A stretch of DNA of 64,000 nucleotides from Waterburya sp. (GTDB lineage: Bacteria > Cyanobacteriota > Cyanobacteriia > Cyanobacteriales > Xenococcaceae), in assembly GCA_965217895.1 (NCBI GenBank), contig CBDCJV010000002.1, positions 160,001 through 224,000 of the forward strand, read 5' to 3'. The notes under the pieces are model-generated. The model saw only the letters and a program-made list of their open reading frames with translations, did not search any database and had not been told where the DNA came from. Made by a program: the position numbers and the translations under genes. Shown in pieces: positions 14,518-42,574 of the stretch (positions are counted from its first letter, which is position 1; the number at the start of each line of letters is the position of its first letter).

Positions 14518-15598
14518 ACCTGAGTTCGGGATAAGAAAAAGGACAGGTAGTAAGCTGAAAATAACAACTTTCTTCAGTAAACCTGCCCTATGTTTAGTTT
14601 AGATGCTTTATTTTGTGATGTAGACGATTTTTGTCTTGTTTTTGAACCTGAATGGCAAAAGAAGTTGCTAAGTCATGGCGGAATAAAAAGACGCAGAGCG
14701 AAAAACCTCTGTTTGAGTGAAATAATGACGATTTTAATTGCGTTTCATCAAAATCACTATCGCAATTTTAAACACTTTTATCTTGACTATGTAAAACAGC
14801 ATTGGCATTTGGCTTTTCCAGGACTTCCTAGCTATCAAAGATTTGTGGAATGGACTCCTTCAACTTTAATTCCGTTGTGTGTCTACCTCAAACGTTGTTT
14901 TGGAAACTGTACAGGGATTGGTTTTGTTGATGCTACTAGTCTCAAAGTTTGTCAACACGGTGGTTGTATAAGCTGGGGAAACCCCAGCATACCCCACCGT
15001 CACAATCGCCGAATTAAACGCCACAAAGTTTTTGATGGTTTAGCTCAAAGAGGTAAAACTTCGGTTGATTGGTTTTGCGGTGCGACCCCGCTGGGGTTTC
15101 CCCAGCATGGGAACGCGCACCAAGATGGTTTTAAGCTCCACTTAGTAGTCAACGAGATCGGTCAACTGTTAAATGCTCAACTTACTCCTGGAAACTTTGA
15201 TGATCGTCGTCCTATTCCTGACTTGCTTCAAGGTCTTTTTGGTAAATTTTTTGCAGACAGAGGCTATGTCTCCCAAAAGCTTGCTAATCAATTGCTCGAA
15301 GAGTTTGGGATTCAGTTTTTTGCTAAACCCAGACGTAATATGAAGAATAAATTAATGCGACTTCATGACAAACTTCTATCCCGCCACCGATCAATTATTG
15401 AGACAATTAATGACCAACTCAAAAATATTTCTCAAATCGAACATTCTCGCCATCGATTGCGAAGCTAGCCGAAGGCATCGCCAGTAAATTTTTGCGTTAA
15501 TGTTCTTTGTGGATTAATCGCTTATTGTCATCAACCTAAAAAGCCTAGTCTCCGCCTTGATTGGCTTTTGCCTCAATCTGCTTAACCCGAACTCAGGT
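14518..15598 (+). mobile_element. IS982-family element, copy 2
   Basis: TIRs ACCTGAGTTCGGG; Tpase 14590-15585 (DATSL, ADRGY, IETINDQLK) with three inserts of 48, 48 and 21 nt, the last carrying TAG. Confidence 0.95.
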
Positions 15599-15645
15599 TA
15601 CTTACTACTTACGAGCAATTAGCTTTTCTGCCCCAACCGATTAAC

Positions 15646-16581
15646 TTAGTGCGATACAGGTTCGGTACTGCCAAAGCTGATGTCGTCTTCTTCGTAATCT
15701 GGTGGTTCAACGTGGATCACCACTCGTACTTGACCAAAACGTTTTTCTAAGTGTTCTTCTATTGTTTCTGTAATTTGGTGAGCAGCGATAATATCGTTAG
15801 TATCAACGACTAAGTGCATTTCAATAAATACCTGTCTACCTAGCATTCCTCGCGAAGCAATCTCATGACAGTTAAGTACTCCTGAAACTTGCATTACAGT
15901 ATCATGGATGGCTTCAGGAGCGATCGCCATTTCATCAACCAGCCAGGGTAAATTTTCTTTAATTACTTCCCAACCGCTATAAAATACCAATAAAGCTACA
16001 GGAAAAGCGAGAATTACATCGAGCCATTCTAGTTTAGGGATATTGAGATTTTTTGCTTGCCATACTCCCACTAATCCAGCAATCACAATTATTGTGACCC
16101 AAATATCGCTCATGGTATGCTTGGCATCAGCAATTAAAATGGGGCTATTAACTTTTCTGCCTATATTGCGCTCGTAAAAGGCGACAAAGATATTAACCCC
16201 TAAAACAAGCAACAAGAGCCATAGCTCAGTCGAAGTTACTTTGATTGCTGCATTTTCAGTATTTAAGAAGATTTTCTCTACAGCCCCACGTAAAATTTCA
16301 AAACAGGCAATTCCTAAAAAAGCGGCAATTCCCAATGCGCCTACCGCCTCAAACTTTTGATGCCCGTAGGGATGTTCTCGATCTGGTTTGGGAGAAGAAA
16401 AACGATTGGCGATCAAACCCAAAATGTTGTTGACACTATCGGTGATACTGTGCAACGCATCTGCCTGTAGACTCAATGAACCAGAGGCAATACCTAAAGT
16501 CAACTTGAGAGCCATGACAAACAAGTTTAAAAGTAATGTTAACCAAAGGACTTTGCGAACTTGAGAACGATTGTCTTGCAT
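15646..16581 (-). CDS. Cation diffusion facilitator transporter
   Basis: ADALHSITD, PDREHPYGHQKFE, ADAKHTMSD, IHVEP. Confidence 0.92.
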   Translation of the reverse strand: MQDNRSQVRKVLWLTLLLNLFVMALKLTLGIASGSLSLQADALHSITDSVNNILGLIANRFSSPKPDREHPYGHQKFEAVGALGIAAFLGIACFEILRGAVEKIFLNTENAAIKVTSTELWLLLLVLGVNIFVAFYERNIGRKVNSPILIADAKHTMSDIWVTIIVIAGLVGVWQAKNLNIPKLEWLDVILAFPVALLVFYSGWEVIKENLPWLVDEMAIAPEAIHDTVMQVSGVLNCHEIASRGMLGRQVFIEMHLVVDTNDIIAAHQITETIEEHLEKRFGQVRVVIHVEPPDYEEDDISFGSTEPVSH

Positions 16582-16787
16582 TATTTAAGAACAGAAAAGC
16601 AACCAGATACTTGCTTTATAATCATAATCCGAAACATATCTATAGTCGCGATATGTTAATGCTTGTAGACAAAGTTCATTGTTTATCAACAAAGAGTTAG
16701 TAGTTCTTAGTCTGTCGTTTGTAGTCGGATATAAACTACCAACTACTTACCACTAACGACGAACTTTGTCTGTTGTCGAACTATCCC

Positions 16788-17432
16788 TTAATCTTTGGGC
16801 AATAGTCTTTCTTGTCCGTATTCCCAAACAAAGTAGGCAACAAGAATAGCAATTACCAATAGCAGCGCAGCAACTCCAGCTTGAGCAGCCCAGGTAATGA
16901 TCTGCTCTAAAGAAACAACTCGTCCCAGGAAAAAAGCCAGGGTGACAATGGTAGTTGACCACAACGCAGCACCACCCAAATTACAGAGCAAAAATTGTTT
17001 ATAGGGCATTTTGGTAATTCCTGCCAAAGGTCCTGCAAAAATTCTCAACAAAGTAACAAAACGTCCAAAAAAGACAGCCTGAGCAGCATTTTTACTGTAG
17101 CGATCTTTTACCAGTTCTAGCTGCTGTTCTTGGATTCTGAAAATGCTGCCAATTTTAACTATAAGCTGCCAGCCGCCAATTCTGCCAACCCAATAACCAA
17201 AATTATCGCCTAAAACTGCTCCAGCGATCGCACTACCCAAAACCATTCCATAATTCAATTCATTGCTGCCAGCTAAAAAACCGCCAACTATGACGACGGT
17301 TTCTCCAGGTAGGGGAATACCCATATTCTCTAGAGCAATGCCAATAAACACTGCCCAATAACCGTAGAGGTGAGCAATTTCTTGTATAGTTTCTAATGTA
17401 AATAGCTCGATTGACATTCCACGGCTTAACAA
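16788..17432 (-). CDS. DedA family membrane protein
   Basis: ENMGIPLPGE, GDNFGYWVGR, FFGRFVTLLR. Confidence 0.9.
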   Translation of the reverse strand: MLSRGMSIELFTLETIQEIAHLYGYWAVFIGIALENMGIPLPGETVVIVGGFLAGSNELNYGMVLGSAIAGAVLGDNFGYWVGRIGGWQLIVKIGSIFRIQEQQLELVKDRYSKNAAQAVFFGRFVTLLRIFAGPLAGITKMPYKQFLLCNLGGAALWSTTIVTLAFFLGRVVSLEQIITWAAQAGVAALLLVIAILVAYFVWEYGQERLLPKD

Positions 17433-17507
17433 AGATTAACGCTATTACCCATACTGACGTAAATTAACCAATAGTGTCAACGTCAGAATGGGAGAACTAG
17501 TCAGGAA

Positions 17508-17756
17508 TTAAGTGGGAACAGCTTCTCCTGGACGTAGTTTTGACCATTTACCAGATTCTTCTACAAAGCTTTGACAGCCAACTACATCCCACTCCATTTC
17601 AATAATTTCGTCTTGGGTACGAATGTTGACGTTAATCGTCGGTTCAACAGGTTCAAAGGTTGGATTTTCGGTTAAATGGGCTTGTTGGTGTTGAGTTTCT
17701 ACTGCATTGTAGGTTTGGCAGTTATCAACATATTGGCAGTTGATACAGATACACAT
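17508..17756 (-). CDS. ycf34: Ycf34 family protein
   Basis: MCICINCxYVDxC start, EWDVVGC motif. Confidence 0.9.
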   Translation of the reverse strand: MCICINCQYVDNCQTYNAVETQHQQAHLTENPTFEPVEPTINVNIRTQDEIIEMEWDVVGCQSFVEESGKWSKLRPGEAVPT

Positions 17757-17840
17757 AATTTTTTAATTGAACTTCATGCTTTAATTGTTAATCTAGCTCA
17801 GATAACAGTACATAGTCACGATAAATTTAAATAAATTTAA

Positions 17841-19061
17841 ATGGTTGTAGAACAACTCAAGTCATATTTAAATAGGGTAAATTTCCCCTGTGACTTGAAT
17901 CAACTACCAGCAAACGCCTATTTAGTTGGGGGTTCGGTAAGGGATGCTTTACTAGAGCGTTATAAAACCCCGATAGATTTAGATTTTGTTTTACCCGCCA
18001 AGACAATTGAAACTGCTCAAGAAATTGCCAACTCCTATCATGGTGGCTTTGTGGTTTTAGATGCAGCTAGGGAAATAGCCAGAGTTGTTTTCCCTCAAGG
18101 AACTTTAGATTTTGCTCGTCAAGAGGGAAGCTTAGAAACAGATCTTAAAAGACGGGATTTTACGATTAATGCGATCGCTTTCAACCTGAAATCTCAACAG
18201 TTAGTCGATCCCTTGGGAGGCATAGCAGATCTCCAACAGGGAATCATCAGAATGGTTTCAGCTAGTAATCTAGAAGACGATCCCTTAAGACTATTACGGG
18301 CATATCGACAGGCAGCACAGCTAGACTTTAGCATTGAGGGTGATACGAGGCGAGCAATTGGCGATCGCACTTCTCTATTAAAGACTATTGCAGCCGAAAG
18401 AGTTCAAGCTGAATTAAATTATCTTTTTACTGCACCCCAAGGAAACAAATGGTTAGCAGCAGCAGATGATTTATTACAGTTTTGGCTACCTAGCATTAAG
18501 CTAGGAAAAATCGAGCAGCTAGAGACAGTAGAAGCTGCGCTTGAGGTTTGCCTTGATTCTGGTTTAAATCTGCCTGAATTGAACATTTTAGCCAAGCTGG
18601 CAACCTTAGTGTCTACAAATGCAACTAACGCTGAAGCTGAATTAATCCAGCTAAAATATTCCCGCAACCAGATCAAAGCCGTAACAAAAACCGTGCAGCA
18701 TTTACCCCAACTGCAAACTATGACAAGCTTAATGAGCTTGAGGGAACAGTATTTTTGGTTTTTAGCAGTCAAAGACTTTTTTCCTTTATTGGCAGTTAGA
18801 GCGATCACCACAGGAGTATCTTCAGTAATTATAGACCCCTTAATCGAGCGTTATTTAAACCCTAATGATCCTGTCGCCCATCCCCAACCCTTAATTACAG
18901 GCAACGATCTAATTCGTGAGTTTGAGCTTAAACCTTCTCCCCTAATTGGGACAATACTGACAGAAGTTCAAGTTGCCCAAATTGAATCAAAAATATCTAC
19001 ACCTCAGCAGGCTTTAAACTTTGCCAACTCGTTATTAAAATCAAATAAGCAAAAAACGTAA
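17841..19061 (+). CDS. CCA tRNA nucleotidyltransferase / polyA polymerase family
   Basis: YLVGGSVRD, DLDF, RRDFTINA, DDPLRLLRAYR. Confidence 0.9.
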   Translation: MVVEQLKSYLNRVNFPCDLNQLPANAYLVGGSVRDALLERYKTPIDLDFVLPAKTIETAQEIANSYHGGFVVLDAAREIARVVFPQGTLDFARQEGSLETDLKRRDFTINAIAFNLKSQQLVDPLGGIADLQQGIIRMVSASNLEDDPLRLLRAYRQAAQLDFSIEGDTRRAIGDRTSLLKTIAAERVQAELNYLFTAPQGNKWLAAADDLLQFWLPSIKLGKIEQLETVEAALEVCLDSGLNLPELNILAKLATLVSTNATNAEAELIQLKYSRNQIKAVTKTVQHLPQLQTMTSLMSLREQYFWFLAVKDFFPLLAVRAITTGVSSVIIDPLIERYLNPNDPVAHPQPLITGNDLIREFELKPSPLIGTILTEVQVAQIESKISTPQQALNFANSLLKSNKQKT

Positions 19062-19070
19062 GCAAAATTA

Positions 19071-19364
19071 TCAGCCAGCAAATCTGTTGCTTTTGCCTTT
19101 ATTACAGTCGCTACAAAGTGTTTGTAAATTACTCATAGCGTTGCTACCACCTTTAGAGAAAGGAATAATGTGATCTACTTCTAGTTCCGCTTTCTTAACT
19201 GATATGCCACAAAATAGGCAACGATAATTGTCTCTTCTCAATACATCAACGCGAGTTATAGCGGAAATATAACGCGATCGCTTTTGGGTATTTTGTATTT
19301 TCTTCTTCGTTATTTTTTTTTGGCGTTTAGATTGAGGAGATGAAGCGATTAATATTTGAGACAG
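19071..19364 (-). pseudogene. HNH endonuclease fragment (not in ORF track)
   Basis: Manual translation: RSRYISAITRVDVLRRDNYRCLFCG...LEVDHIIPFSKGGSNAMSNLQTLCSDCNKGKSNRFAG*; no ATG upstream of the domain. Confidence 0.8.
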
Positions 19365-19435
19365 CTATTAAGAAATGGCGTTTTGATAATGCTAAAATAA
19401 AGTACATACAAAGTAATTACTTAAACTGGCTAACA

Positions 19436-19681
19436 ATGAAGATTGACATTATCAAAATTGGCAATTCTCAGGGAATCCGTATTCCCAAAACAATTATTGA
19501 ACAATGTAAATTTCGAGATTCAGTAGAAATGGAAATAAAAGACGGGAATTTGGTTTTAAGTTCTCATCGAGTCAGAGAAGGATGGTCTAATTCTTTTCAG
19601 ACTATGGCAGCCAATAAAGATGATGAACTATTAATTGACGAGACTATTTCCACAGAATACGACCAAGAATGGGAATGGTAA
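19436..19681 (+). CDS. AbrB/MazE family antitoxin
   Basis: MKIDIIKIGNSQGIRIPK; ATG at 19436 is the likely start rather than 19340. Confidence 0.88.
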   Translation: MKIDIIKIGNSQGIRIPKTIIEQCKFRDSVEMEIKDGNLVLSSHRVREGWSNSFQTMAANKDDELLIDETISTEYDQEWEW

Positions 19682-19995
19682 GTCGAGGAGAAATCTATTT
19701 AGTAAATTTAGATCCCACAGTTGGTTCAGAAGTACAAAAAACTCGTCCTTGTCTAATAGTTTCTCCCGATGAGATGAATCAATATATCCGCACAGTAGTT
19801 ATTGCACCAATGACTACCAGACAAAGAAATTACAAAAGTCGTGTAGCAATTAAGTTTGATGGTAAACAGGGAGAAGTAATGCTCGACCAAATTAGAACTA
19901 TTGATAAAACACGTTTAATCAAAAAATCAGGAATCTTATCAGTTAAAAAACTAAAAGCAGTATTATCAGTTTTACAAGAGATGTTTGCTTATTAG
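19669..19995 (+). CDS. PemK/MazF family toxin
   Basis: RGEIYLVNLDPTVGSEVQKTRPCLIVS, DQIRTIDK. Confidence 0.92.
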   Translation: MGMVSRGEIYLVNLDPTVGSEVQKTRPCLIVSPDEMNQYIRTVVIAPMTTRQRNYKSRVAIKFDGKQGEVMLDQIRTIDKTRLIKKSGILSVKKLKAVLSVLQEMFAY

Positions 19996-20017
19996 TTTGG
20001 CTACACAATTTGGCAAT

Positions 20018-21034
20018 TTAGCGATCGCGTTCGAGTCTTTCTAAATCTAATTTGACTGGATTGTATGGTTGTTGAATCGCTTTGCCGTTAGTATTTTGAG
20101 CAATCACCGACTGTACTCCTTCGATAGTAGAAATCATGCTGCGAGGATCCATAAACATTACTTTGCTGCTTTCGCTACTGCCAATTTCTTTACCCATTTC
20201 TAAATAGTTTTGCGCCAGAAGAAACTGTAAAGCTTCATGAGCATTGGGATCGGACTTCAGTTTTTCCATGACAATTTTCATGGCTTCGGCTGTGGCTTGA
20301 GCTTTAAGAATTTGCTCTTGGCGTTCGGCTTCGGCTTTCAAGACGATTGACTGTTGTTCTGCCTCTGCATTTAAAATGGCTGCTTTTTTAGCTGATTCTG
20401 CCTCTAGTAATCTTGCCTGAGCATTTCCTTGAGCCGAGTTAATAGCAGAATCTCGATGTCCTTCTGAAGTTAAAATATTAGCTCGTTTTTGTCTCTCCGC
20501 TGCCATCTGCAATTCCATCGAATCTTGGACAGCTTTTGAAGGCATAATGTCTCGCAATTCTACCCTGGTTACTTTTACTCCCCAAGGATCGGTAGCAATA
20601 TCTAGCTCTCTTAAGAGAATCTCGTTGATTTCAGTACGAGCCGTAAAGGTTTGATCTAGCTCCAATTGACCCATTTCTGAGCGAATTTGCGTTAAAACCA
20701 TGTTTACCATGGCATCTCGTAGATTTTCTACTTTATAAAAAGCCTTGTACATATCCATGATGCGCCAGTAAACTACTGCATCGACAGTGATGCTCACATT
20801 GTCGCGGGTAATACAAGATTGTGGAGGTATATCTAAAACTTTTTCTTTAATGGTGTCGTGGTAGACAACTTTATCAATAAAAGGAGTAACAAAATTTAAG
20901 CCTGGTTCAAGCTTTTTTTTATAGTTACCTAAGCTTTCAACTAGATATTCCTCTTTCTCTTTAACAATTTTGACCGATCCTGCTAGGGTAGTTGAACCTA
21001 ACAACAATAAAGCTAAAGTTAAAAACTGTCCCAT
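20018..21034 (-). CDS. SPFH/stomatin-like protein
   Basis: [29 protein letters not shown]; paired with NfeD. Confidence 0.92.
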
Positions 21035-21118
21035 AATAAACTCCTATTAAAATATTTAATAATTGCCTTATTTATAACTCTTCTCTCAAAAAACAAACTT
21101 GTGCGAGCGATCTAACAC

Positions 21119-21559
21119 TTAACCATGATCCAGCATCCTCGATGGTAAGACAATTAAAGTATTGCCTTGTTTGCGAACTACGTGAACAGGTTCGTTAGGG
21201 GCAATATCTCTAGTCTCATCAGCACATTTTGCTCGCCAAGAATTTCCTTCATACAAAACTCTGCCTATAGACCCTGCGGGAATACCGCTAATTGCAGTAG
21301 CCTCTAAATCATCTCCTGTAATTGATATTCTGCGCTTAGGTGTGAATAAACGACGCGAAAAGATAGTTAAGACAGTGGAAAAGATTAACCACAAGCCTGT
21401 TAGTAAAGTATACTGTGGCAAAAATAGAGATGCGATCGCTACTAGAAAAGCAGCAATACCCATCATTAAGCTTACAAAAGCAGTAGGAAAAAGGAACTCC
21501 ATTAAACAGAGTATCGCCCCCGCAACTATCCAAAAAAGAGTAGGATCAACCATAAGCAA
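21119..21559 (-). CDS. NfeD family protein
   Basis: N-terminal TM helices, GRVLYEGNSWRA, GNTLIV. Confidence 0.88.
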   Translation of the reverse strand: MLMVDPTLFWIVAGAILCLMEFLFPTAFVSLMMGIAAFLVAIASLFLPQYTLLTGLWLIFSTVLTIFSRRLFTPKRRISITGDDLEATAISGIPAGSIGRVLYEGNSWRAKCADETRDIAPNEPVHVVRKQGNTLIVLPSRMLDHG

Positions 21560-21738
21560 TAGTTTTTACTATTAAAAAACCTGAAATTTTAGATTGATGT
21601 TAAATATTTAGCAATTTCCTTTAATTCTAACCACAGCCAAGCTTAAGATGCTCGTAAGTTATATATAAGTAATAAATAGACCAACACCATAACGTTTGCA
21701 TATTAAAATTTAATAGTTGTCTACAATATATTGATAAA

Positions 21739-22023
21739 ATGCCTAAAGCAATTTGGAATGGTCAAGTCTTAGCCGAAAGCGATCGCACTGAAGTAGTCGA
21801 AAACAATCAATATTTTCCGCCTGATTCTATTAATCAAGAATATTTTCGCGCCAGTTCTACCCACACTTCATGTCCCTGGAAAGGACAGGCTAGCTACTAC
21901 AACATCGTTGTTGACGACCAAGAAAACAAGGACGCTGCTTGGTATTACCCAGAAACTAAAGAAAAGGCAAACAATATCAAAGGTTACGTTGCTTTTTGGA
22001 AAGGTGTAAAAGTAGAAGTATAA
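21739..22023 (+). CDS. DUF427 protein
   Basis: AIWNGQVLAESD, CPWKGQASYY, AAWYYP. Confidence 0.88.
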   Translation: MPKAIWNGQVLAESDRTEVVENNQYFPPDSINQEYFRASSTHTSCPWKGQASYYNIVVDDQENKDAAWYYPETKEKANNIKGYVAFWKGVKVEV

Positions 22024-22118
22024 ATTAAGACCTCTTGCACGAATCATAAATCTTGGTTAGGTCAGAGGTCAGAAGTCAGCAGGAATTTACTGTAATTATT
22101 TATATCTATGTACTTAAC

Positions 22119-23516
22119 CTACTTGGAACTCAAAACCAGCTTGACTTTTGTATCGTCTGATATGGGCGAAATTTCTTGATAAGTCAAATTAAGAAACAAA
22201 TTAGGCTTAAGAGCAATAGAACTACTGGCGATTATACCTTTACCATGAGAACCTTGACCATAGCCAAGCTCAAACGTCCATAGACGCTTATTTTGGCTAA
22301 CTATTTTGCCCGAGTGTAGACTACCTCCCAAAATAGTAAACTGTTCCTGATTTTGGTTGACTAAGTGAGCCTCGTATTTAAAAAATGTAGAACATTGAAA
22401 ACCATAGACATCAGAGTCAAGTAGCCTGAGATTAAGTTCGGCTATACTTTTTTGTTGATTATTGCCATAGGCAATTTTTAAACGACCTATTTGCGAACTT
22501 AAATTCCAATGCAAGTTGTTTTTATTATCTACCACTGCATTAGCAGAAAGAGAAAGAAAATCATTATGTACTGCTACTTTAAGACCTGTGCTAAAGGATC
22601 TATCTTTACTGTTGCTTTTCGCCATCAAAGTTAAACCAGGAACAACACCCCAGTTTGCATCAAACCTATGCTTTTTCTCGTCGCTATAGTAGTTTAAGAC
22701 TAAATTTTTACCAGGCTGTAGACGAACATGGGAATGTAAATCGATACCAGATTCTTTTGCCAATAATGAAACGGTGGTTTTTACAGGCAAAAGATTGCTT
22801 TCGTAGGTTAGCTGAGTAAAACCGACTAACAAATCTTCGTAAACAAATCCTACTCCCACAGTTACCTGATCTGCTATGCCGTGGTGATAGGTTACTCCTC
22901 CCCGAAATTTGCCAAATTCGCGGGAAATATCGGCTTTTTTGGCAAAATTTTGATTTCCGCCTCCAGATACTGTTAAAGCTGAACTCCCTGAAGGCAATTT
23001 TGGTGCAGCATCTAAATAATTGAGTTTAGCAATGTTTAATTTTTGGTTTGGATTTCCCCCCCATTGTTCAATTGTAGTCAAACCCCAATATTTATGATTA
23101 TTACCACCAGACCAAAAAGTATTCTGAAAACCTAAAGCTAGATTAGCCTGGTCTTCTTTATAGGTATAAGAAAGCTTGTCTAAGGATATGTCTTGATTAT
23201 TTTGCAGATCGATCTTAGAACTGAAGTTAGAGATGATCTTTGAGCGTTGGTCATCAGACAAACTGATTTTTAGATTTTGATCGACAGCAAAACCAATATT
23301 ATCCCCTTTATTAACGGTTAAAATACGATCAACAAAGTTAATAAGCCGAGGTACAACAGGCAATTGATCGTATGATAAAAGTTTTGCTGAGATAATTGCA
23401 GGTGTCGGTTTTTGAGGTCGGTTCTCAGCAGCTTTTGGGTTGGCAAGGACTATACTAGGACAACCAAGGCAACCGAAAATGCTACCAAAAAGTAGGTTTG
23501 CTACAATGGCTTTCAT
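22119..23516 (-). CDS. Hypothetical secreted / beta-rich outer-membrane protein
   Basis: 465-aa ORF with signal-like N-terminus and alternating beta-strand pattern. Confidence 0.6.
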   Translation of the reverse strand: MKAIVANLLFGSIFGCLGCPSIVLANPKAAENRPQKPTPAIISAKLLSYDQLPVVPRLINFVDRILTVNKGDNIGFAVDQNLKISLSDDQRSKIISNFSSKIDLQNNQDISLDKLSYTYKEDQANLALGFQNTFWSGGNNHKYWGLTTIEQWGGNPNQKLNIAKLNYLDAAPKLPSGSSALTVSGGGNQNFAKKADISREFGKFRGGVTYHHGIADQVTVGVGFVYEDLLVGFTQLTYESNLLPVKTTVSLLAKESGIDLHSHVRLQPGKNLVLNYYSDEKKHRFDANWGVVPGLTLMAKSNSKDRSFSTGLKVAVHNDFLSLSANAVVDNKNNLHWNLSSQIGRLKIAYGNNQQKSIAELNLRLLDSDVYGFQCSTFFKYEAHLVNQNQEQFTILGGSLHSGKIVSQNKRLWTFELGYGQGSHGKGIIASSSIALKPNLFLNLTYQEISPISDDTKVKLVLSSK

Positions 23517-24667: not shown

Positions 24668-24694
24668 AGCTTATTTTGCCAAACTTTTAAAAGG

Positions 24695-25039: not shown

Positions 25040-25478
25040 GGCGTTGCTGAACGTGTAATGCTAAAACAAAATTTTACTTATCTATTCATCAACATGGCGA
25101 TTAGAGATGCTCTCTGACCGAGAGCCTCTCTCGCCATCAAGACAGATTGCTCAAAAGCTAATAGTAAGGGCGACCCCCGCGCATGGTTCAACAGTTTGAC
25201 GGGCGGCGGTATAAACGTCGCAGCAAAGCTACGACGACACGCCCTCCTTATGCCAGGAAACCCTTTCGACACTTTGCTCAACGGAGGATACCTCCGCAAC
25301 GCAAGTGTCTCACCACCGCAACTGCTTCACCGCAACGCAACTGTCTCACCGCGTCGTCCGAAGGCGCAAACAAAGGCTTTAGCCGCATGTACGCGCCCGC
25401 ACCCGAAGGGCTAACGGCTAAGAGCTAAGAGCTACGAACAAAATTATTATGTATGTCATTACTTAAATCAGCAACGCC
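25040..25478. mobile_element. MITE (TIR GGCGTTGCTGA) carrying nested GC-rich inserts
   Basis: GGCGTTGCTGA...TCAGCAACGCC with exact 8-bp TSD TAATTATC; GCTAAGA heptamer repeats. Confidence 0.85.
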
Positions 25479-25549
25479 TAATTATCTAGTAATATATTTA
25501 AGTATGCATTAATATCCCTGGTGTTGTTCTGAAGAGTAAAACCTATGAC

Positions 25550-31585: not shown

Positions 31586-33372
31586 TAAAACCTACGCACT
31601 CGCCCCCTAAATCCCCCAAGACGAGCGACCCCCCCTAAAGGGTTCAACAGTTTGACGGGCGGTATAAACGTCGCAGCAAAGCTACGACGACACGCCCTCC
31701 TTATGCCGGTGAAACCTTTCGACACTTTGCTCAACGGGTCTATGACCCGCAACGCAAGTGTCTCACCACCGCAACTGTCTCACCGCGTCGCCGTCAGAGG
31801 TCAGACCCCGCGTCGCCGTTAGGCGCAAGGGAATGCTGACCTAGCAAGGGAATGCGCGAGTGGGGGACTTTTAATTCTTGTTCCCCCAAGTTTGGTAGGG
31901 CTGTTTCATTCTCAAAATAGAAGATGCGATCGCGAATAAATCTATTCACTACACCTATCAGTGACACAAAGAAAGTAATAATGGCAAATTATGGCTTAAA
32001 TAACTGATTGCCTCAGTCATAGAATCAAAACCATGAACTCTCAGTAGGTTAATAACCCAACTTTTAATCAAAGAGATGTTTGTGGATGCTTTGCCGTGAA
32101 GTTGAGGGCTGTTATCTTCTTTCGTTACGACATCCTTAAACGGCACTCAATACGGCGACGCAGGTTCGCCGTCCGTGCCTCCCCAATGCCAACGATTCTC
32201 GATACCCCAATGTCGGCCAATACCTTGGGGAATAAGCCAAGAAGTTGCTGTTCACAAGTAGCAGATAACAAGTAGCGCAGCCTGGAGGCTGCCGACGTTG
32301 CTCCGCAACGGCCAGACGCGAAGCGCGTCTGCAAGTTCAACCTCTGCCACAGCAAGCAAAGCTTGCAAAGTCGTCGAAGACGACGACATGGAGCGATAGC
32401 TCCTGTGTCAGACAAAGGGCTTGCCCGCATGTATTCAAGAGTTGAATTATTTTTTCATCTTTTCCTCATCAATGAAGAGGCTGCATATCCAACTTCGGAG
32501 TTTTTCTTAATTGCTATCTGCTATTTGCACACGCTGGAGCGTGTCGCCATCGCGAAGCGATGTCGGCGTTCTCCAGAACGCGCTACTTGCTACTTAACTC
32601 CGAAGGAGTTGGGTAAAGAACTAATATAATAAGTCGCCGAATCCGATTCGTAATCGTGATTACCTCTTGTTCGCGAACGGAAAATTTTGATGATACTATG
32701 AACTCCAACCCATTGAGAATCAATGTTTGATGGAGGAGCCAATACTTCTACAGTTCGATGAGTTAGTCGATTTCTTGTCTTCTCGATCTGCTCAAAGCAA
32801 CTAATCGCCTTTGTACTTGTTGCTTGAAATTCAACAGCGGAGTGGAATAAGCGCGGGAAACCCACGCATTTCCTCCGCTCAATTTGTCGATGTAATGTTT
32901 TTTGATTTCTTTTGACCACAATTAGGTAGTTATTACCACTGTCGATAATTGCTGAGACTGTTTTTTTTGACAATGTAGAGCATCTATCGTGAACACCACT
33001 CCTTTTAAATGCAGCAATTCTAATAAGTCTTGCACGGCGACAATCTCACTTTGTTTCTTATTTTCCCTAACTTTTATGCCTAAAATTTCCCCGCCTTCAT
33101 GAGTCAAAGCCGAAACCATCATGACGAAGTTTTGCTGTTGTCCATAACAGTCGTTGACAGTATTTTTCAAACTTTTGCCATCAATTGCAATCCATTCACC
33201 TGCTTTTCGCTCATCAGGTATTTGTTTCAAATAGTCAATTAAGCTTTTATCCCAGTCTTTTAAAGTCATTGAGCGGTTAAATTAGGTTTTATATCAATTT
33301 ACCGCACTTTAGCTCTAGAATGAAACAGCCCTACCAGATTTGGGGGGCTAGGGGGCGAGTGCGTAAGTCCTA
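31586..33372. mobile_element. MITE (TAGGACTTACGCA family) interrupted by ISAs1
   Basis: 31592-31890 and 33340-33372 match the uninterrupted copy at 57168-57428; right TIR TGCGTAAGTCCTA intact, left degenerate. Confidence 0.8.
31896..33333 (-). mobile_element. ISAs1-family element with fragmented transposase
   Basis: TIRs TAGGGCTGTTTCATTCT/AGAATGAAACAGCCCTA; imperfect 10-bp TSD CCAAGTTTGG/CCAGATTTGG; motifs IAIDGKSL, TIDALHCQK, VKRNQKTL, RHWGIENRWHW, KDVVTKED. Confidence 0.9.
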
Positions 33373-33429
33373 TTTAAGATTCTTACCTTGCCCGAAACTT
33401 TAACCTAGTTGTAGTTCAAAGATTTAAAA

Positions 33430-35055: not shown

Positions 35056-35132
35056 AAGTAATTTTTTTATAACATAATCCAAACATCTGCTTAATTTGAG
35101 GTAACTTTGATGAGTTAAGACTACTTTAGAAG

Positions 35133-36524
35133 TTGTTTATGAATCACGGTAGCTATGATGTAGTGGTAATCGGAGGTGGTCCTGCTGGATCGACTTTATC
35201 TACCCTGTTGGTCAAGCAAGGGTACGCGGTTTTGCTGCTAGAAAAAGGAAAATTCCCTCGTTTTCATGTAGGAGAGTCTTTATTACCCGCAACTCAAGCG
35301 ATTTGGCACAAGCTAGGTATTGCTGAATCATTAGAAAATTTAGCACAGAAGAGATATAAAGACAGTGCCGAATTTAGGATTGGACTTTCTCCTCATAGTC
35401 CAGATTATGAGTCTGCAAACATTGACTTTACCAAACCCGAAAACTGGTCGGCAAAAGATTTTCCGAATCATCCTTACGCCTATCAGGTTGAACGTAGTCA
35501 ATTCGATCTCTTGCTGTTAAATCATGCTCGCCAACAAGGAGTGAAGGTGTGCGAATCAGCAACGGTGCGAGAGATTATTTGGTCAGGGGATAAAGCGACT
35601 GGCGTGCGGTGGCGTGACGATGACGGACTTGAGCATCTTACCTCAGCTAAATGTATTGCCGATTGTTCTGGAAGACAAGCATTAATTGCCAAAAGTAAGA
35701 ATCTGCTAGTAGAAGATAAAACTATCAAAACCTCGGCGGTGTTTGGTCACTTTAGCGATGTTACTCCTAACCCTGGAAAAGAACAGGGTGCAATTAGCAT
35801 TTACTTTATTGCTAACGGCTGGATTTGGTTTATTCCCCTGCAGGCAAACAAAATGAGCGTGGGAGTAGTAGTCAACAAACCTGAAAGTGACTGGTGGCAC
35901 AAAAAAAATCCCCAGGATATTCTACTTACCTACATAAACCGCTATAAATTTTTGCAAACTAGATTTGAGTCAGCACAGCAAACCTCAAAAACTCGGCTGT
36001 TAAGCAACCTATCCTATGCTGCCAAGCAAACTGCGGGAGATGGCTGGCTATTGGTAGGGGATGCTAATTTCTTTGTCGATCCTTTTCTTTCTTCGGGGGT
36101 GCAGGTAGCCTTTAAAACTGCCGAAAAAGCGGCGATCGCCATTAACGAATATCTCCAGAATAACAGTAATTTAAAATCTTTCCAAAATTATGCAAAATGG
36201 TGTCAAAGCTATAAATTCCATGTTGTTGTGACCATGCGCTTGATGTATGGCTTGATGAAATATCAGTTTGCAATCCGCACATTTGTTACAGCAGTAAGGA
36301 ACAGTTTAAAGATCAAACCCAATCGATTAGAACGGGGGTTTATTGCCTGGACACTTGGTAACTTTGATCGCCATCATTGGTCACTATACTTTATGTGGCT
36401 TGTCTTTTACACACTTATTGTGGTTGCTAAAATACGCCAGTTTATACTGCGTCAAAATCCTTGGTCAGATTATTCAAAGTTTTGTCCCCTGATTAACAAG
36501 CCCATACCCAAACCTCATTGTTGA
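35133..36524 (+). CDS. FAD-dependent oxidoreductase, tryptophan-halogenase-like
   Basis: GGGPAGS, FPRFHVGESL, WIWFIP, GDANFFVDPFLSSGV. Confidence 0.8.
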   Translation: MFMNHGSYDVVVIGGGPAGSTLSTLLVKQGYAVLLLEKGKFPRFHVGESLLPATQAIWHKLGIAESLENLAQKRYKDSAEFRIGLSPHSPDYESANIDFTKPENWSAKDFPNHPYAYQVERSQFDLLLLNHARQQGVKVCESATVREIIWSGDKATGVRWRDDDGLEHLTSAKCIADCSGRQALIAKSKNLLVEDKTIKTSAVFGHFSDVTPNPGKEQGAISIYFIANGWIWFIPLQANKMSVGVVVNKPESDWWHKKNPQDILLTYINRYKFLQTRFESAQQTSKTRLLSNLSYAAKQTAGDGWLLVGDANFFVDPFLSSGVQVAFKTAEKAAIAINEYLQNNSNLKSFQNYAKWCQSYKFHVVVTMRLMYGLMKYQFAIRTFVTAVRNSLKIKPNRLERGFIAWTLGNFDRHHWSLYFMWLVFYTLIVVAKIRQFILRQNPWSDYSKFCPLINKPIPKPHC

Positions 36525-36749
36525 ATAATCGTGTTGTGAAGTTATGCTGTTAAAATTATCGCTACTAGCAAAAAAACCTAACTCTATATTGCGATCGCTT
36601 GTTGTTTTGAAGATCGACTTCAAGAAGTGGCGCATTTATCTGCATCTGTAAATTATTGACCAAATGGATAAATAAAACAAAGCTAATTCACATCAAGTAT
36701 GAGGTATCCTAGCATAGAGAATAAGCCAACCAAACTATGAAGAAAAGCG

Positions 36750-38030
36750 GTGTTAGATCTCAAACTAATTAGAGCCAACCCTCAGCACATTCAAGAATTA
36801 ATTAATCGTCGTAATGGTAGTTATGACATCCAGCCAATTATAAAATTAGATAGTGCTTCAAGGGAGCTAGAAACTAACCGCAGCCAGCTTAGCGCGCGGG
36901 GTAACGAAATTGGCAAACTGATTGGCAAAAAGATTGGTAGCGGTAGCGATCCTCAAGGAAATGAGATAAATCAGCTTAAGGCTGAAGGTAACAACCTAAA
37001 AACCCAGTTAAGTGAATTAGAACCCCAAGAAAGAGAATTAAAAGCCAAGATTGAAGCTCTTTTATTAGAATTACCTAATTTACCTGATGAATCTGTCCCC
37101 GTTGGTAAAAGCGAGGACGATAACGTAGAGATTAAACGCTGGGGCGATGAATATATAGCTAATAGCGAGAATGTATTGCCTCATTGGGAAATAGGCGAAA
37201 AATTAGGCATTTTAGATTTTAAACGGGCAGTGAAAGTAGCCCAGAGTCGCTTTGTTAATTTAGTTGGCGCAGGGGCAGCATTAGAAAGGGCTTTAATTAG
37301 CTTTATGCTGGATATGCAAATTGAAGCCGGTTATATTGAAGTAATGCCTCCTGTATTAATAAATAGTGCTTCTTTACAGGGTACAAGTCAGTTACCAAAG
37401 TTTGCCGAAGATAGCTTTAAATGCACCAACGATGATTTGTGGTTGACTCCTACATCCGAAGTACCTCTTGTTAACCTATATCGAGATGAGGTTTTAGAAG
37501 ATACCGAGTTACCGATCCGCCATTGTGCTTACACTCCTTGTTTTAGAAGAGAAGCAGGCAGTGCAGGTAGAGATAGCAGAGGTTTAATCAGGCTGCATCA
37601 ATTTAATAAAGTAGAGTTGGTTAAAATAGTTGCCCCTGAAACTTCTGATGCCGAACATCAAACTTTAGTAAAGAATGCCGAAGCTATCCTCCAAGCTTTA
37701 AAACTACCTTACCGTATCTTAGAACTCTGCACAGGGGATATTGGTTTTGGGGCTGCAAAATGCTTTGACCTAGAGGTGTGGTTGCCCTCGGCAAAAATGT
37801 ATCGTGAAATCTCTAGCTGTTCTAACTGTAAAGATTTTCAAGCCCGTCGCGCTAATATTCGCTTTAAACAAGCAGGTAAAAAAGGAACACAGTATGTTCA
37901 TACCCTTAATGGTTCGGGCTTAGCAATTGGACGCACTATGGCAGCAGTACTAGAAAATTATCAGCAGCCTGATGGCACAGTTAGAATACCTGATGTGCTG
38001 CAACCATATTTAAAGAGAGAAATTTTGTAG
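36750..38030 (+). CDS. serS: Serine--tRNA ligase
   Basis: [42 protein letters not shown]. Confidence 0.97.
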
Positions 38031-38039
38031 ATATTTATT

Positions 38040-38160
38040 TGTGGGCGAAAGAAAAGTGGGCGAAAAGCCCTTCGGGTTCGACATCGGAAAGCATTCCCTT
38101 GCGCCTTCGGACGACGCGGGGTCTCGACCCACCGCAACTGTCTCACCTTTCGCCCCTACA
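38040..38160. repeat. GTAGGGGCGAA-type palindromic repeat invaded by GC-rich inserts
   Basis: GGGCGAA...TTCGCCCCTACA ends as in the compact copy at 61991-62020; interior shares sequence with 31800-31850. Confidence 0.6.
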
Positions 38161-38174
38161 GTTATTAACTAACG

Positions 38175-38638
38175 TTATTTCTGTGCGTGAATTGTCCAGG
38201 CTGCCATTGAGACTGGGACAATTGGTTCAATTAACTCAATGATCGCACTGGCATAAGCTCCAATTTCGCTTTGCGCCCCTTTTCCTAAGCGTAAGCCAAT
38301 AAAATTCAAAAGAGCCTGTAAACTGACTGTCCAGACCCAAGACGTATAAACAGAAGGAACTAAAACCCCTCTAGCCTGCTCTCTACCTACGCCCAACTCT
38401 AAAAGCTCAGAATACGCCTGATAGCTATTTTCGCATTGTTCTTGGTATAGGTTGATCGCTTTTTGATTAACTTGGGGCTCTAAACTCCCAAGAGTCGCCT
38501 GTTTATTATTTTTTGACTGCTGCCTAAAGGTAAGAGGAATATAAAATTCGTTACTGTCATCAATTGATACATAGCGAAAACTTTTCTCATTCCAGCCAAG
38601 TTGCTCCTCATTGTGATTACTAGCTATGACGTGCTTCC
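38175..38638 (-). CDS. thyX: FAD-dependent thymidylate synthase, exon 2
   Basis: Reads (W)KHVIASNHNEEQLGWNEKSFRY...REQARGVL...AQSEI; in frame with exon 1 once the intron is removed. Confidence 0.92.
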
Positions 38639-39514
38639 CAGTTGTGTTACAAGTAACCCGATGCCGATTACTTTCTTACAGTTTCCTGCAAGCTCAGACT
38701 ATATCATAATCCTTCTATTACAGTTAGGATTCTCCGCGCTTCGAGTTCTCTTAAACCCTACTCCCCAATGGGATAGTCGTTGCGCCTTCCGATGGACTAT
38801 CGGCTTGGCTCAGGATTGCCATATTTTCTGCTTTGTCAACAGACAAACTGTAGGTGTCCCCTGAATTCACGGAGTACGCATCTAGAATTTCTTCTAAATG
38901 GGGCATTGTGTATTTTTCAGTAAGTATGTCAAATTGGATAATTCCCGCTTGTACTAACTGCATAGATATTGACTCTAGCCGATCATGAATTTCTCTATGA
39001 TGACCATTGCTTTGACAAATATAAAGATTGTTAGGCTGATTATTTAGTTTGTCTCCGTCAATGTGGTGAACTCTCTCATGTTTAGTAAGAGGACTACCTT
39101 TTTGAAGTTCTGCGACTAAACGGTGAATTAGACAATACTTGTCTTTTCTACTTGTGTAGTTATGCCCGCGACCCAAATAAACTTCTTTATATCTACTGCT
39201 ATTTATGTATGCTTTACCTATCTCAATCCTGTGCCTAGGTTTTACATTTCCTTTATTCCAAGCAGGTCTACCTTTATTTGCTTTGCCTATAGATCTATTC
39301 TTACAAGTTTTACAGGGGTGTATGTCTGATTCTCGAATCTTTTTAGAATAATTAACAACACGCTCATTCAGACAAATTTCACATCGGAGTTTTACTCGTC
39401 TAGTGTATCTGTATTTACGCTTTGCACCCAAACCCCTTAGAGTTCTTGCATTCTCCAAGATTTCGATGAGCATATTTACACCGTCATACGACACTTACCA
39501 ATCTTACACAGTTT
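38639..39514 (-). ncRNA. Group I intron (IA2-like) in thyX
   Basis: 5' exon ends in U, intron ends in G; P GAATTCAGGGGA (38857-38868), Q AATCCTGAGC (38808-38817), R GCAACGACTAT (38773-38783), S ATGATATAGTCT (38696-38707); P3 CTCCGT/GCGGAG. Confidence 0.9.
38751..39494 (-). CDS. Intron-encoded HNH homing endonuclease
   Basis: CEIC...CKTC, NKGRPAWNKG, HRLVAE...VHHIDGDKLNNQPNNL; alternative ATG at 39473. Confidence 0.88.
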   Translation of the reverse strand: MSYDGVNMLIEILENARTLRGLGAKRKYRYTRRVKLRCEICLNERVVNYSKKIRESDIHPCKTCKNRSIGKANKGRPAWNKGNVKPRHRIEIGKAYINSSRYKEVYLGRGHNYTSRKDKYCLIHRLVAELQKGSPLTKHERVHHIDGDKLNNQPNNLYICQSNGHHREIHDRLESISMQLVQAGIIQFDILTEKYTMPHLEEILDAYSVNSGDTYSLSVDKAENMAILSQADSPSEGATTIPLGSRV

Positions 39515-39767
39515 ACCATTGACGACATACATACAAAGGAGCTTTTACTTTAAATTTAAATACAACTCCACGAAAAGGGCTAGTATGTTCATGTTTGATT
39601 AAATAGTTGATTAGTTTAATATCTTTTTCACCAAGCTTATTAGAAGTCTTTTCAAAAGATGCTCTGGCATCATTCACTATACTTAAATCATTTCCCATAG
39701 AATCAATTAATTCAATTCTACTTTTGCCGTCATTTAAAGGATCTCTTGATATTAGAGTATTGTCCAT
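39515..39767 (-). CDS. thyX: FAD-dependent thymidylate synthase, exon 1
   Basis: MGNDLSIVNDARASF, LINYLIKHEHTSPF, KAPLYVCRQW. Confidence 0.92.
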
Positions 39768-39823
39768 AATTAAACTATTTGTATATATTTGCTTTTTTCA
39801 ATCTAGATTACTTTAGTTCGTAA

Positions 39824-40426
39824 TCAAACCTTCGGTAAGGTAACGCCAGAACCTTGATTTTGATATTTACCGCCTCGATCTGCGTAGGTGGTTTCGCAAG
39901 ACTCCCCCTCGAAAAATAATAACTGCACCACGCCCTCATTAGCGTAAATTTTTACATCCGCACTAGAAGCATTACTAAATTCTAAAGTTATACTTTCTCC
40001 CTGCCAAGAAGCCTCTAAGGGAGTCGTATTCGCTATCACACCAACACGAGCATAAGTAGATTTGCCAAGACAGATAGCGGTCACGTTGGCAGGCATTTTA
40101 ATACTTTCTAAGGATGCTCCTAAACCGTAACTATTTGCAGGGATAATAAAGTAGGATGAGCCATCATCATCATTGTGTAACTCTGCCTGTTCCAAGTTTT
40201 TGGGATTAAACTTTTTGGGATCGATAACAGTTCCTGGAATATGGCGAAATATCCGAAAATCGTGAGGAGACAGACGGATATCGTAGCCATAAGAACTTAA
40301 ACCCCAACTGATAGTAGATACTGCTTTTTCTGCACCCAAAACTGCTTTTCTGATTGATTTTTTCTCAAAAGGAGAAATCATACCTTGACAGGCTTGCTCG
40401 ATAATCCACTTATCATTTTTAATCAT
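39824..40426 (-). CDS. dcd: dCTP deaminase
   Basis: GLSSYGYDIRL, GKSTYAR, NTTPLE, YANEG, YADRGGKYQ. Confidence 0.93.
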   Translation of the reverse strand: MIKNDKWIIEQACQGMISPFEKKSIRKAVLGAEKAVSTISWGLSSYGYDIRLSPHDFRIFRHIPGTVIDPKKFNPKNLEQAELHNDDDGSSYFIIPANSYGLGASLESIKMPANVTAICLGKSTYARVGVIANTTPLEASWQGESITLEFSNASSADVKIYANEGVVQLLFFEGESCETTYADRGGKYQNQGSGVTLPKV

Positions 40427-40569
40427 CTTTGAGATACTGTTGCCAACCCTGACTATTTGTAAGCAGAGAGTATCTTAACAAGCAAAACGTTAATCTTAAT
40501 CTTTATTTTTTCTGAGGGATAAGGCGATCGCATAGCTAGATTAGGCATCGCCTTTGATGATTAGCTTGT

Positions 40570-40725
40570 AAATACTTCGTCTAACCCGACAACATCAAAT
40601 CTTCCCCTGACAACCTTTGAGGCGAACTAAGTGCTTCTACATCTTTGCCTAAACGGTAAATTTCTACTCTTTTCTCATCAGGGTGAATCAGCCAACCTAG
40701 TTTGACACCACATTCTTGATATTCT
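40570..40725 (-). pseudogene. Uma2-family endonuclease C-terminal fragment
   Basis: Manual translation EYQECGVKLGWLIHPDEKRVEIYRLGKDVEALSSPQRLSGEDL. Confidence 0.75.
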
Positions 40726-40740
40726 TTAATAGAGAAATTA

Positions 40741-40874
40741 ATATAGCGATTCTCAAATCAATAAGATACATTAGCTAAGTTCTGAAAAAAAGTGCAAAAC
40801 CTTTCCCCCTTTTACCTTTTCCCTTTAACTAGACACAACTAAGGTGTATCTCGTAAATAAGAGAAACGCTATAT
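40741..40874. repeat. MITE
   Basis: Imperfect TIR ATATAGCGATTCTC / GAGAAACGCTATAT plus inner AGATACA/TGTATCT. Confidence 0.6.
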
Positions 40875-40912
40875 TATTCGAGTGTTAATAATTTTGTTAG
40901 CTAAAAATTGTT

Positions 40913-42574
40913 CTAAAAAGAAAAAACCGTTCGTAGAGTCCCAGAGACAATTGTGCCATTACTATCCTGGTTGGCAGCATTAGTAATTACTTGAACTAAA
41001 GGTGTGATGCGAATATTGTCATTGACGGGAAAATTGTAGAATGCCTCAATGTTAGTTTGAGTAGCGTTACCAATCTTATCAGCAATAAAAGGTTGACCGA
41101 CAGCAACACCACTAATCGCACCAGACATAAACAAATCAGGAAAAGCGATTCCCACTATCCAGTAACTTGGATTAATATCCCCAAAGTCTGTATTGTTATA
41201 GCTGCCATAGCCGTAACGTCCAAAAACAGCAATTCGCTCTGAAATTGCCCACTCAAAGTTAGCTCCCACAACATCAAAGCGATCGCCCAATATTTCTCCG
41301 CCAGTGTACTGAAAACGCATGGTAAAATTATTAACAGGAGTGAATTCTACTTCAACTGCACCCTGATAGGGGTCGCCAAATAGCCCACCCTCGCTTTCAC
41401 CGTCGGGATAAAGAATATACCCGATGGGAAAAATACCAGGAACAAAAGACGAATTATCTGAGTTCGGTTCATTTGCCAATGCAGCTACATAAGCAGCTTT
41501 TACTCTAATACTTTCAACTGGATTCCAATCAATTACAGCACCCGCACCTAAACCTTGAATGGGAAAAAGAATGTAATTCTGTGATAATGACAGGGTGGAA
41601 AAGTTCAAAAAGCTAGGATTAATATAACTATTAGTATCTACATAATCAGTCAAACTAAGAGTAGAACCAAAGGTTAAATTAAGCTTATCAGACGGAGAAA
41701 AAGTATAGTAAAGACGAGAGATACCAAACTCTTCTACAGGTGGTTTTGCCGAGTAGTCTAGAACACTACCGAAAGTGGGTTCTAGAAAACCACCTGTATT
41801 ATCATCAATTCCATCGCTACCAATTTCTAGCCAGGTTACTAAAGAATCAGTACCATTAAAACTCGTATTGAGTTCCAAAGTAGTTCGATAAATTAGGGTG
41901 GCATTAGGATCGTCTGTGGTAATTTCTTCACCCGTTACATCAATAATGCGATCGCCCTCAAAGCCCCCTGCTGTTGCCCCTAAAACAACTAATGTTGTCA
42001 GTTTAGTAGTAGTAGAAAATTGATGGCGAGGCACGCTGCTTCGCAAGCAGCTTGTGCAATCGCCATGTTGATTTTCTTCTAAAAAAGCAGTTCGTTTTTC
42101 TAATTTGTCAACACGACTTTCTAAAGTAACTAGCTCGGCTTCAAATTCTTGTCTCAATCTTTGTAAGGTAGCTAAATCGTTACTAGATATTGATGTTTTC
42201 TCTTGAGCTATTAATTGCTCAACTTGTTTAAGCACCTTGTTTAAAGCTACTGCAAATTCATAGCGAGTTAGAGAGCGATCGCCTTTGAATGTATTATCTG
42301 GGTAGCCCGTGATTATACCGTAACGCTTAATTAAAAGCTGAAGTGCTTCATAAGCCCAGTCTGTTGGCTGAACATCTGAAAGTTTGCTCACAGGTGTAAC
42401 TTGCCCGACTAAAGCAGATACAGGCTCTTGAGAAATAACCTCTGGAACAGCTTGAGCAGGATAACTCTGAGTAATTAAAACTAGAAAGCTTAAACTATTA
42501 ACAAAATACAAATTGCAGAAAGAACACTGTAATTTCATTTGACTTAGACAGAGTTCGCTAATAAATGTTTTCAA
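40913..42574 (-). CDS. SLH-domain / OprB-type cyanobacterial porin (iron-uptake porin family)
   Basis: SDVQPTDWAYEAL, TRYEFA, QFSTTTKL, C-terminal TLRTVFSF; carries a 16-aa in-frame insert. Confidence 0.9.
   Translation of the reverse strand: MKTFISELCLSQMKLQCSFCNLYFVNSLSFLVLITQSYPAQAVPEVISQEPVSALVGQVTPVSKLSDVQPTDWAYEALQLLIKRYGIITGYPDNTFKGDRSLTRYEFAVALNKVLKQVEQLIAQEKTSISSNDLATLQRLRQEFEAELVTLESRVDKLEKRTAFLEENQHGDCTSCLRSSVPRHQFSTTTKLTTLVVLGATAGGFEGDRIIDVTGEEITTDDPNATLIYRTTLELNTSFNGTDSLVTWLEIGSDGIDDNTGGFLEPTFGSVLDYSAKPPVEEFGISRLYYTFSPSDKLNLTFGSTLSLTDYVDTNSYINPSFLNFSTLSLSQNYILFPIQGLGAGAVIDWNPVESIRVKAAYVAALANEPNSDNSSFVPGIFPIGYILYPDGESEGGLFGDPYQGAVEVEFTPVNNFTMRFQYTGGEILGDRFDVVGANFEWAISERIAVFGRYGYGSYNNTDFGDINPSYWIVGIAFPDLFMSGAISGVAVGQPFIADKIGNATQTNIEAFYNFPVNDNIRITPLVQVITNAANQDSNGTIVSGTLRTVFSF

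Follow-up and report, generated by a model that had tools for sequence, protein, structure and literature searches.

A structure-defined 48-nt hairpin inserted precisely in Xenococcaceae genomes, with a target rule probably written in its own stem

To our knowledge, how very small cyanobacterial repeats move has been an open question since 2008. In that year Elhai et al. reportedly described the small dispersed repeats (SDRs) SDR1-8 of Nostocaceae, which are said to measure 21-27 nt. Integron attC sites, another class of folded DNA, are conserved in their single-strand fold and unpaired bases, not in sequence. Here we analysed a 48-nt hairpin element present in a 64-kb stretch (hereafter the window) of the genome of Waterburya sp., a cyanobacterium of the family Xenococcaceae (contig CBDCJV010000002.1, positions 160,001 to 224,000), together with its copies in the same genome (hereafter the own genome) and in its relatives.

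Several described systems come close to this element. SDR5 is reported to insert between bases 3 and 4 of HIP1 (PMC4390886), and no SDR-like repeat is reported outside Nostocaceae (PMC5861425). For IS608, a member of the IS200/IS605 group of insertion sequences (IS), published work describes insertion 3' of a tetranucleotide via a single-stranded circle, with C−3 paired to G−35, T−4 paired to A−34 and −2 unpaired (PMC3201880). Repetitive extragenic palindromes (REPs) are served by REP-associated tyrosine transposases (RAYTs); published work reports in-frame insertions for REP/RAYT subclass 2.4 (PMC6006769), and cutting by RAYTs at CT or CA, with one group needing a bulge (PMC8266576).

The original prediction, made from the letters of the window, had noted four 48-nt hairpins of one architecture. 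Letters, positions and strands of all four 48-mers were found as quoted when checked in the 64-kb window (Table 1), and RNAalifold returned the same fold of 7+4+6 bp exactly from 20 genomic copies. The 32834 copy is imperfect: a C·A mismatch and a G·T pair each occur in it once (score 1.5). The prediction was right about these four and had missed a fifth, identical copy and a sixth, rearranged one. Its statement that three of the four lie in frame in proteins stood as to frame, and needed qualification as to coding: two are sense, the first within an intact porin open reading frame (ORF) and the second within the ORF of a DDE transposase, and the third is antisense within a frameshifted transposase remnant. 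The host IS of the 14955 copy is presumably of the IS982 family, and the transposase remnant around the 32834 copy is one that we take to be of the ISAs1 family.

Table 1. Copies of the 48-nt element, their hosts and sister-family hairpins in the window (a slash marks the insertion point in the target).
Feature	Position	Strand	Target	Basis
48-nt element, AC…CA ends, sense and in frame within DDE transposase ORF	14955..15002	+	GTCA/CA	empty paralogues
48-nt element, intergenic, inside repeated non-coding unit	25092..25139	+	ATCA/AG	letters and fold
48-nt element, TG-bulge form, G·T pair, antisense and in frame in broken transposase gene	32834..32881	+	TTCA/AT	empty G069 homologue
48-nt element, sense and in frame in OprB/SLH porin gene	42021..42068	-	ATCA/AT	empty orthologues
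Fifth copy, identical to 14955-15002, in duplicate of same IS	46748..46795	-		1096-nt duplicate, 100%
Sixth, rearranged copy with inverted internal duplication, in third, split copy of that IS; limits approximate	9741..9800			
Host IS of the 14955 copy	14509..15604	+		ORF 14590-15468, Pfam DDE_Tnp_1_3
Host transposase remnant of the 32834 copy, frameshift-split	32590..33269	-		ORFs
Host gene of the 42021 copy: OprB-family porin with SLH domain, 553 aa including 16-codon insert	40913..42574	-		
Sister-family hairpin, second insertion (48-nt alignment gap) in same transposase gene as 14955 copy	15077..15124	-		
Sister-family duplicate of 15077-15124	46626-46673	+		
Sister-family hairpin	about 57290-57350	-		
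Sister-family hairpins	38090-38124 and 31803-31837			

The element is a precise insertion of exactly 48 nt, because relatives or paralogues carry empty sites exactly 48 nt shorter at three of the four loci. Paralogous transposases of ORF 14590 without exactly these 48 nt were found for 14955-15002, the homologous IS in the relative genome G069 is shorter by exactly 48 nt at the 32834 site, and all four aligned porin orthologues lack exactly 48 nt at 42021. The empty sites already carry the tetranucleotide that precedes the element. At 25092 the empty paralogues of the host unit, about 80% alike, differ at the junction and are too diverged to fix it; the sequence itself recurs in four copies with similar flanks and in one further copy at an unrelated site. 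The length given by the empty-site alignments thus lies above the SDR range of 21-27 nt, as had been claimed. At the porin site, the contig of a diverged co-occurring strain also skips the 48 nt. Excision was considered for the same skip in contigs from sequencing runs X1/X2 of one sample, and rejected: its depth of 6.8 against about 25 fits a second diverged strain, and the skip is the empty allele of that strain.

To find further copies, the own genome (5.3 Mb) was scanned for the pairing pattern alone (17 pairs). Seventy-five places satisfied it, compared with 2 and 2 in two locally shuffled chromosomes. AC…CA ends are carried by 52 of them, in 28 distinct sequences; among the 23 others, 3 AT-rich matches were dropped as chance before the counts, and the remaining ones share the fold and differ in their ends. 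From 20 own-genome copies we built a covariance model, which gave at least 83 matches in this genome, with 150 of about 980 candidates scored. In these 20 descriptor-selected copies 16 of the 17 pairs covary, a count that the selection makes circular. We therefore used a pattern of conserved bases only, which fixes 3 of the 17 pairs, and examined 80 of at least 110 loci found. Among these 80 listed matches, at least 11 of the 14 free pairs formed in 50 of 54 loci with cyanobacterial titles and in 1 of 26 others, which bears out the predicted covariation of the stems. The stems vary freely around a fold, a length and a few bases that stay constant: 120 sites hold 113 distinct sequences, so that a similarity search would indeed miss most copies. 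Identical elements at unrelated sites were seen for only 2 of 90 sequences, and many multi-copy sequences ride as passengers in IS or in hosts resembling MITEs, the miniature transposable elements with inverted repeats. The bulges are kept in 154 descriptor-selected distinct sequences and also in the pattern-only test. In 18 of 19 sequences of the TG-bulge form the strand displayed shows a G·T pair, and this conserved pair points to one active strand.

Taken together, many further copies and clean empty sites demonstrate that the 48-nt element is almost certainly mobile and defined by its structure, as a non-autonomous insertion. Covariation by itself overstates selection, since template switching from arm to arm yields compensatory pairs in a single step; the kept bulges and length are a better sign that something reads the shape. 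Among 50 sites, 4 were antisense in an ORF, 3 sense in an ORF and 43 outside long ORFs, and stop codons counted in six frames revealed no clear selection for open frames. RNA-level excision, for which a check had been suggested, is unlikely to be general, because copies sit both sense and antisense in ORFs. Rfam returned two matches for the 20 copies at E up to 5, both far below threshold, and nothing in the window at gathering score except a group I intron elsewhere.

The scan of related genomes with a covariance model, proposed in the original prediction, matched 56 of 60 other genomes of the family, giving more than 1000 family matches in all, with 38-94 candidates scored per genome, so that a blank means not found. 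The element-rich genomes include g1, g15-g21, G089, G103 and G119. Only 7 of 144 non-family genomes in an order-level sample and 0 of 148 in a phylum-level sample matched, and the same scan gave no good copy in the genus g14. Folding hits bore the titles Xenococcaceae, Pleurocapsa, Hyella, Spirulina and Prochloraceae; the sole Brasilonema hit does not fold. None of 21 pattern matches to viruses in IMG/VR folds (at least 5.5 of 17 pairs broken), a phage collection searched with one copy as query gave no match, and one plasmid record, of Stanieria, matched at 81%. Two elements lie close together in two relatives, 75 nt start to start in locus L209 (G038) and 64 nt in L210 (G039); at L209 both are in frame in one transposase-like ORF. 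In the literature searched, which left most subscription papers and Elhai 2008 with its supplements outside reach, no description of this element was found. The element is real, lineage-restricted and, as far as searched, undescribed.

We then investigated where the element lands. The junction lies exactly behind (N)TCA and in most cases ahead of AW. Across 120 distinct sites the bases before the junction are T in 98, C in 118 and A in 119, and those after it A in 104 and W in 111; the CA is forced by the search pattern in pattern-derived loci, and is present in the left flank of 49 of the 52 own-genome copies, where it is unforced. Right flanks other than A, and rare left flanks, place the crossover within or directly after CA. 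The last four bases of the element (N45-T-C-A) mimic the target. When every element position was screened against every target position, a single signal stood out, that of target −4 with element bases 4 and 45. Of 93 sites, 60 carry at −4 the same base as the element does at 45, compared with 25.1 after shuffling (0/5000 shuffles). The relationship was replicated in 40 held-out sites, taken from 88 copies in 79 unused loci minus sites resembling earlier ones: −4 is complementary to element base 4 at 28 of them versus 11.3 expected (0/5000 shuffles). For the combined sets the count is 78 of 120 versus 33.4, and with one site per outer stem (37 stems) the rule still holds, with a mean of 22.6 against 10.2. 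The covariance model treats the flank column as unpaired and therefore cannot create this correlation. At −3, T faces a near-invariant A at 98 of 120 sites, so that covariation there is without power. Positions −5 to −9 carry little or no signal (best −7, 196/5000 shuffles), and the fading indicates a target window of four bases. These results make it probable that the target is chosen by pairing with the element's own stem.

How such a target could be used is best explained, in our tentative judgement, by a gene-less non-autonomous element recognised as a folded single strand in the style of IS200/IS605, here with one hairpin. An enzyme supplied in trans would bind the bulged hairpin on single-stranded DNA and cut 3' of NTCA at both junctions, which would free a rod-shaped circle with CAAC as its closing loop. 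This circle would rejoin into a new NTCA, where target −3 and −4 would pair with element bases 3 and 4 and replace the element's own 3' arm. In this peel-and-paste scheme a single hairpin would serve as both ends and as its own guide, and template switching between arms together with stem exchange between copies would make the many variants. The circle, the cutting chemistry and the choice of DNA over RNA are inferred parts of this scheme. If bases 3 and 4 guide both the element's own end and the target, its geometry at −3 and −4 is that of IS608. An enzyme of the HUH type acting on single-stranded DNA would fit, a proposal by analogy to which we give somewhat less than even weight; within it, a HUH/Y1-type tyrosine transposase is the most likely enzyme class. 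The own chromosome has no GC skew that would serve to read a bias to the lagging-strand template.

Several observations weigh against this mechanism. At 42 of 120 sites −4 is not a Watson-Crick partner of base 4, mostly through C/T exchanges opposite a purine, and these mismatches favour no single strand (G4 with T at 15/36, A4 with C at 6/22). One orthologous insertion reads C in place of the window's T, which shows that part of these mismatches is due to drift. The rule was tested for AC…CA ends only, and other end classes look looser by eye. In IS608 the base at −1 pairs with a fourth guide base; the element shows no counterpart of this pairing, its base 6 being mostly G, not T. No circle or excision was observed, and no enzyme was found, all enzyme tests being negative or uninformative. 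The covariance model detected no hairpin in 30 IS200-type tnpA loci (the best 30 of several hundred matches) and none in 39 RAYT and IS110-like loci; 12 further RAYT loci gave at most 12.6 bits. The RAYTs inspected carry their own GTAG REPs. Y1_Tnp matches numbered 0 in the element-rich genomes G069, G017 and G006 and 28 in G031, which has no good copy, blanks that are soft because the same search missed RAYT genes in the own genome.

The search was also made from the side of the elements. By eye, no recurring unknown gene was found beside own-genome copies. In 11 loci, mostly near pairs of copies, no shared enclosed gene appeared in the 9 with ORFs listed, and in relatives, copies near each other are either independent or passengers of other repeats. 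Scanning for the distal hairpin on its own returned solely variants and a sister family, and no autonomous parent. Tyrosine recombinases occur in 5 of 5 genomes and are hence uninformative; Y2 transposases were found in 0 of 5, a zero that carries no weight because the control was likewise silent. IS200 TnpA, RAYT and IS110-like proteins were each considered as the mover and set aside, as neither adjacency nor distribution, for which the original prediction had proposed a check, shows a link. Two tandem RAYT genes of subclass-2.4 type stand in the own genome at C2 3519189-3521277 (L287), one intact with a REP inside and one frameshifted.

The alternative that survives best, unlikely though we consider it, is an RNA route, in which processing of a hairpin transcript would yield an RNA of 48 nt, linear or circular, and a reverse transcriptase, primed through 4-nt microhomology at a nicked target ending in NTCA, would copy this RNA into DNA. 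The conserved G·T pair suits RNA, the own genome has 8 reverse transcriptase matches (several of group II intron type by size), and the target match decays away from the junction (−1 119, −2 118, −3 98 and −4 78 of 120; the search pattern in part imposes −1 and −2). However, the match ends at −4 although the stem is 7 bp long, the loop sequence is free and includes reverse-complement forms, and simple reverse transcription leaves the fixed length and fixed bulges unexplained.

Less likely again is a site-specific recombinase with a 2-4 bp core, be it of the IS110/bridge type or a tyrosine recombinase that works on a strand in folded form, as at integron attC. The CA on both sides resembles a core dinucleotide, G103 and G119 hold a CT-ended class of the same fold, and the own genome holds divergent IS110-like genes. 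Yet the distribution of the IS110-like family, present in 24 of 61 family genomes including the element-poor g14 and not found in the element-rich G033, G036 and G037 nor in G103 and G119, is mismatched to that of the element, and no hairpin adjoins these genes. The 4-nt junction that holds the crossover is moreover unpaired and forms no duplex, and a GTT R-box of the kind that defines attC does not occur on both arms. Divergent IS110-like proteins of about 405 aa barely pass Pfam (own genome C2 2845708-2846925 and 3922319-3923521; G069; L245-L249); three of their loci have a similar non-coding stretch upstream, and some lie near small integrases.

A process without a dedicated enzyme, in which template switching during replication would catch free hairpin DNA by short homologies and also repair its arms, with covariation as a mutational by-product, appears more improbable than either. 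Arm-copying and loop inversion clearly occur, and compensatory changes are possible in one step. Such capture would erase the bulges, yet they are kept; it predicts homology to the element at +2, whereas C, as in the element, stands there at only 3 of 120 sites; and it does not account for the lack of matches among the 148 non-family genomes sampled across the phylum. A classical MITE, tiny at 44 nt and duplicating a 4-bp NTCA target, can be dismissed as highly improbable. NTCA does often stand on both sides of the hairpin, but the copy on the right tracks the element's stem (these two positions are paired in 19-20 of 20 sequences) and not the target, equals the left at −4 in 60 and at −3 in 73 of 93 sites, and so contradicts an equal target-site duplication. 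We thus favour the HUH-type enzyme over the reverse transcriptase route, the short-core recombinase and enzyme-free capture, in that order.

Three features had no place in the original prediction: the element-encoded target base, the swapping of modules and other end classes. Where the outer and apical stems are both perfect (95 sequences), the outer stem takes 29 forms, the middle stem 17 and the apical stem 25. When two outer and two apical stems are crossed, the full set of four combinations is found 22 times (6 of these with three or more differences in each), and the corresponding counts are 12 for outer with middle and 6 for middle with apical. Stem exchange between copies is the simplest reading, with parallel change also possible. 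Perfected palindromes and flipped loops are present and indicate arm-to-arm template switching; bulge-erased copies were seen, by eye, only as single copies. In G103 and G119 (L250-L276) CT-type ends go with the same fold; this class lands in heptamer repeats and other hairpins and is probably 49-50 nt long. A sister family, with 57 copies and 45 distinct sequences in the own genome, has the same general shape. Its internal loop is a different one, its middle stem is fixed, its outer stems covary, and its ends are of several types.

Other hairpin forms were met alongside these. Forms of 72 nt, the element with 18 further bases inside, lie in the own genome at C2 2682404-2682475, 5104744-5104815 and 4501318-4501389. 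Hairpin insertions of 42, 45, 51 and 73 nt were seen as clean gaps between paralogous repeats, for example at C2 923409, 2407378, 4336522, 169986 (window 9986) and 336513. An 18-nt simple hairpin with AC…CA ends after TCA, in a common repeat at window 25281-25298(+), is possibly a minimal relative of the 48-nt element.

How does the element compare with the described systems? Like SDRs, it is very small, gene-less and precisely inserted, often within other repeats or mobile elements; its fold is likewise kept by compensatory change, and it has several target classes. It differs in its 48 nt and three stems against an SDR range of 21-27 nt, in its occurrence in Xenococcaceae-titled and a few other records whereas no SDR-like repeat is reported outside Nostocaceae (PMC5861425), in encoding a target base in its own stem and in swapping stem modules. 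It is a variant on the SDR theme, not shown to belong to the named families SDR1-8. It resembles integron attC sites in being conserved in fold and unpaired bases rather than sequence, and differs in having no paired R-box or cassette arrays, in its fixed length and in being the whole mobile unit itself. With IS608 it shares insertion 3' of a tetranucleotide without duplication, an end formed by a similar tetranucleotide, pairing of target −3 and −4 with bases of the element, a bulged hairpin and one active strand (PMC3201880). In contrast to IS200/IS605, which has left and right ends in IS608, it is one hairpin, lacks −1 pairing, uses as its guide a stem foot whose guide base varies per copy, and has no cognate tnpA that we found. 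Like REPs and their hairpin-forming doublets (REPINs), it is a small bulged hairpin spread in trans, and the RAYT cut dinucleotides CT and CA are its two end dinucleotides; unlike them, it has no GTAG tag 5' of the hairpin, forms no inverted doublets and does not flank RAYT genes. On the tested features the element fails membership of the SDR, IS200/IS605 and REP groups, and works like an SDR with an IS200/IS605-style self-guide.

Two further features of the window stand apart from the element. A group I intron at 38675-38935(-) (Rfam RF00028) is, we presume, a tRNA-Leu intron, and the 3' end of mutS (7928-8126) has a partial second copy, 86-88% alike, about 1 kb downstream at 8932-9131.

The −4 rule, replicated in held-out data, is a quantitative clue that the element's own stem specifies in part where it lands. 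A scarless 48-nt inserter with a tunable target would rank among the smallest self-guided mobile DNA, would be a source of 16-residue protein insertions, and offers a defined bait for its enzyme. We regard as possible, though on balance doubtful, that it belongs to a superfamily of self-guided single-stranded transposons, 48-51 nt long and assembled from stems that can be exchanged, in which an undescribed enzyme would bind a common distal hairpin while the outer-stem foot and end dinucleotides set the target. If so, one base-pair change would reprogram each copy, and the enzyme would also explain how cyanobacterial SDRs move.

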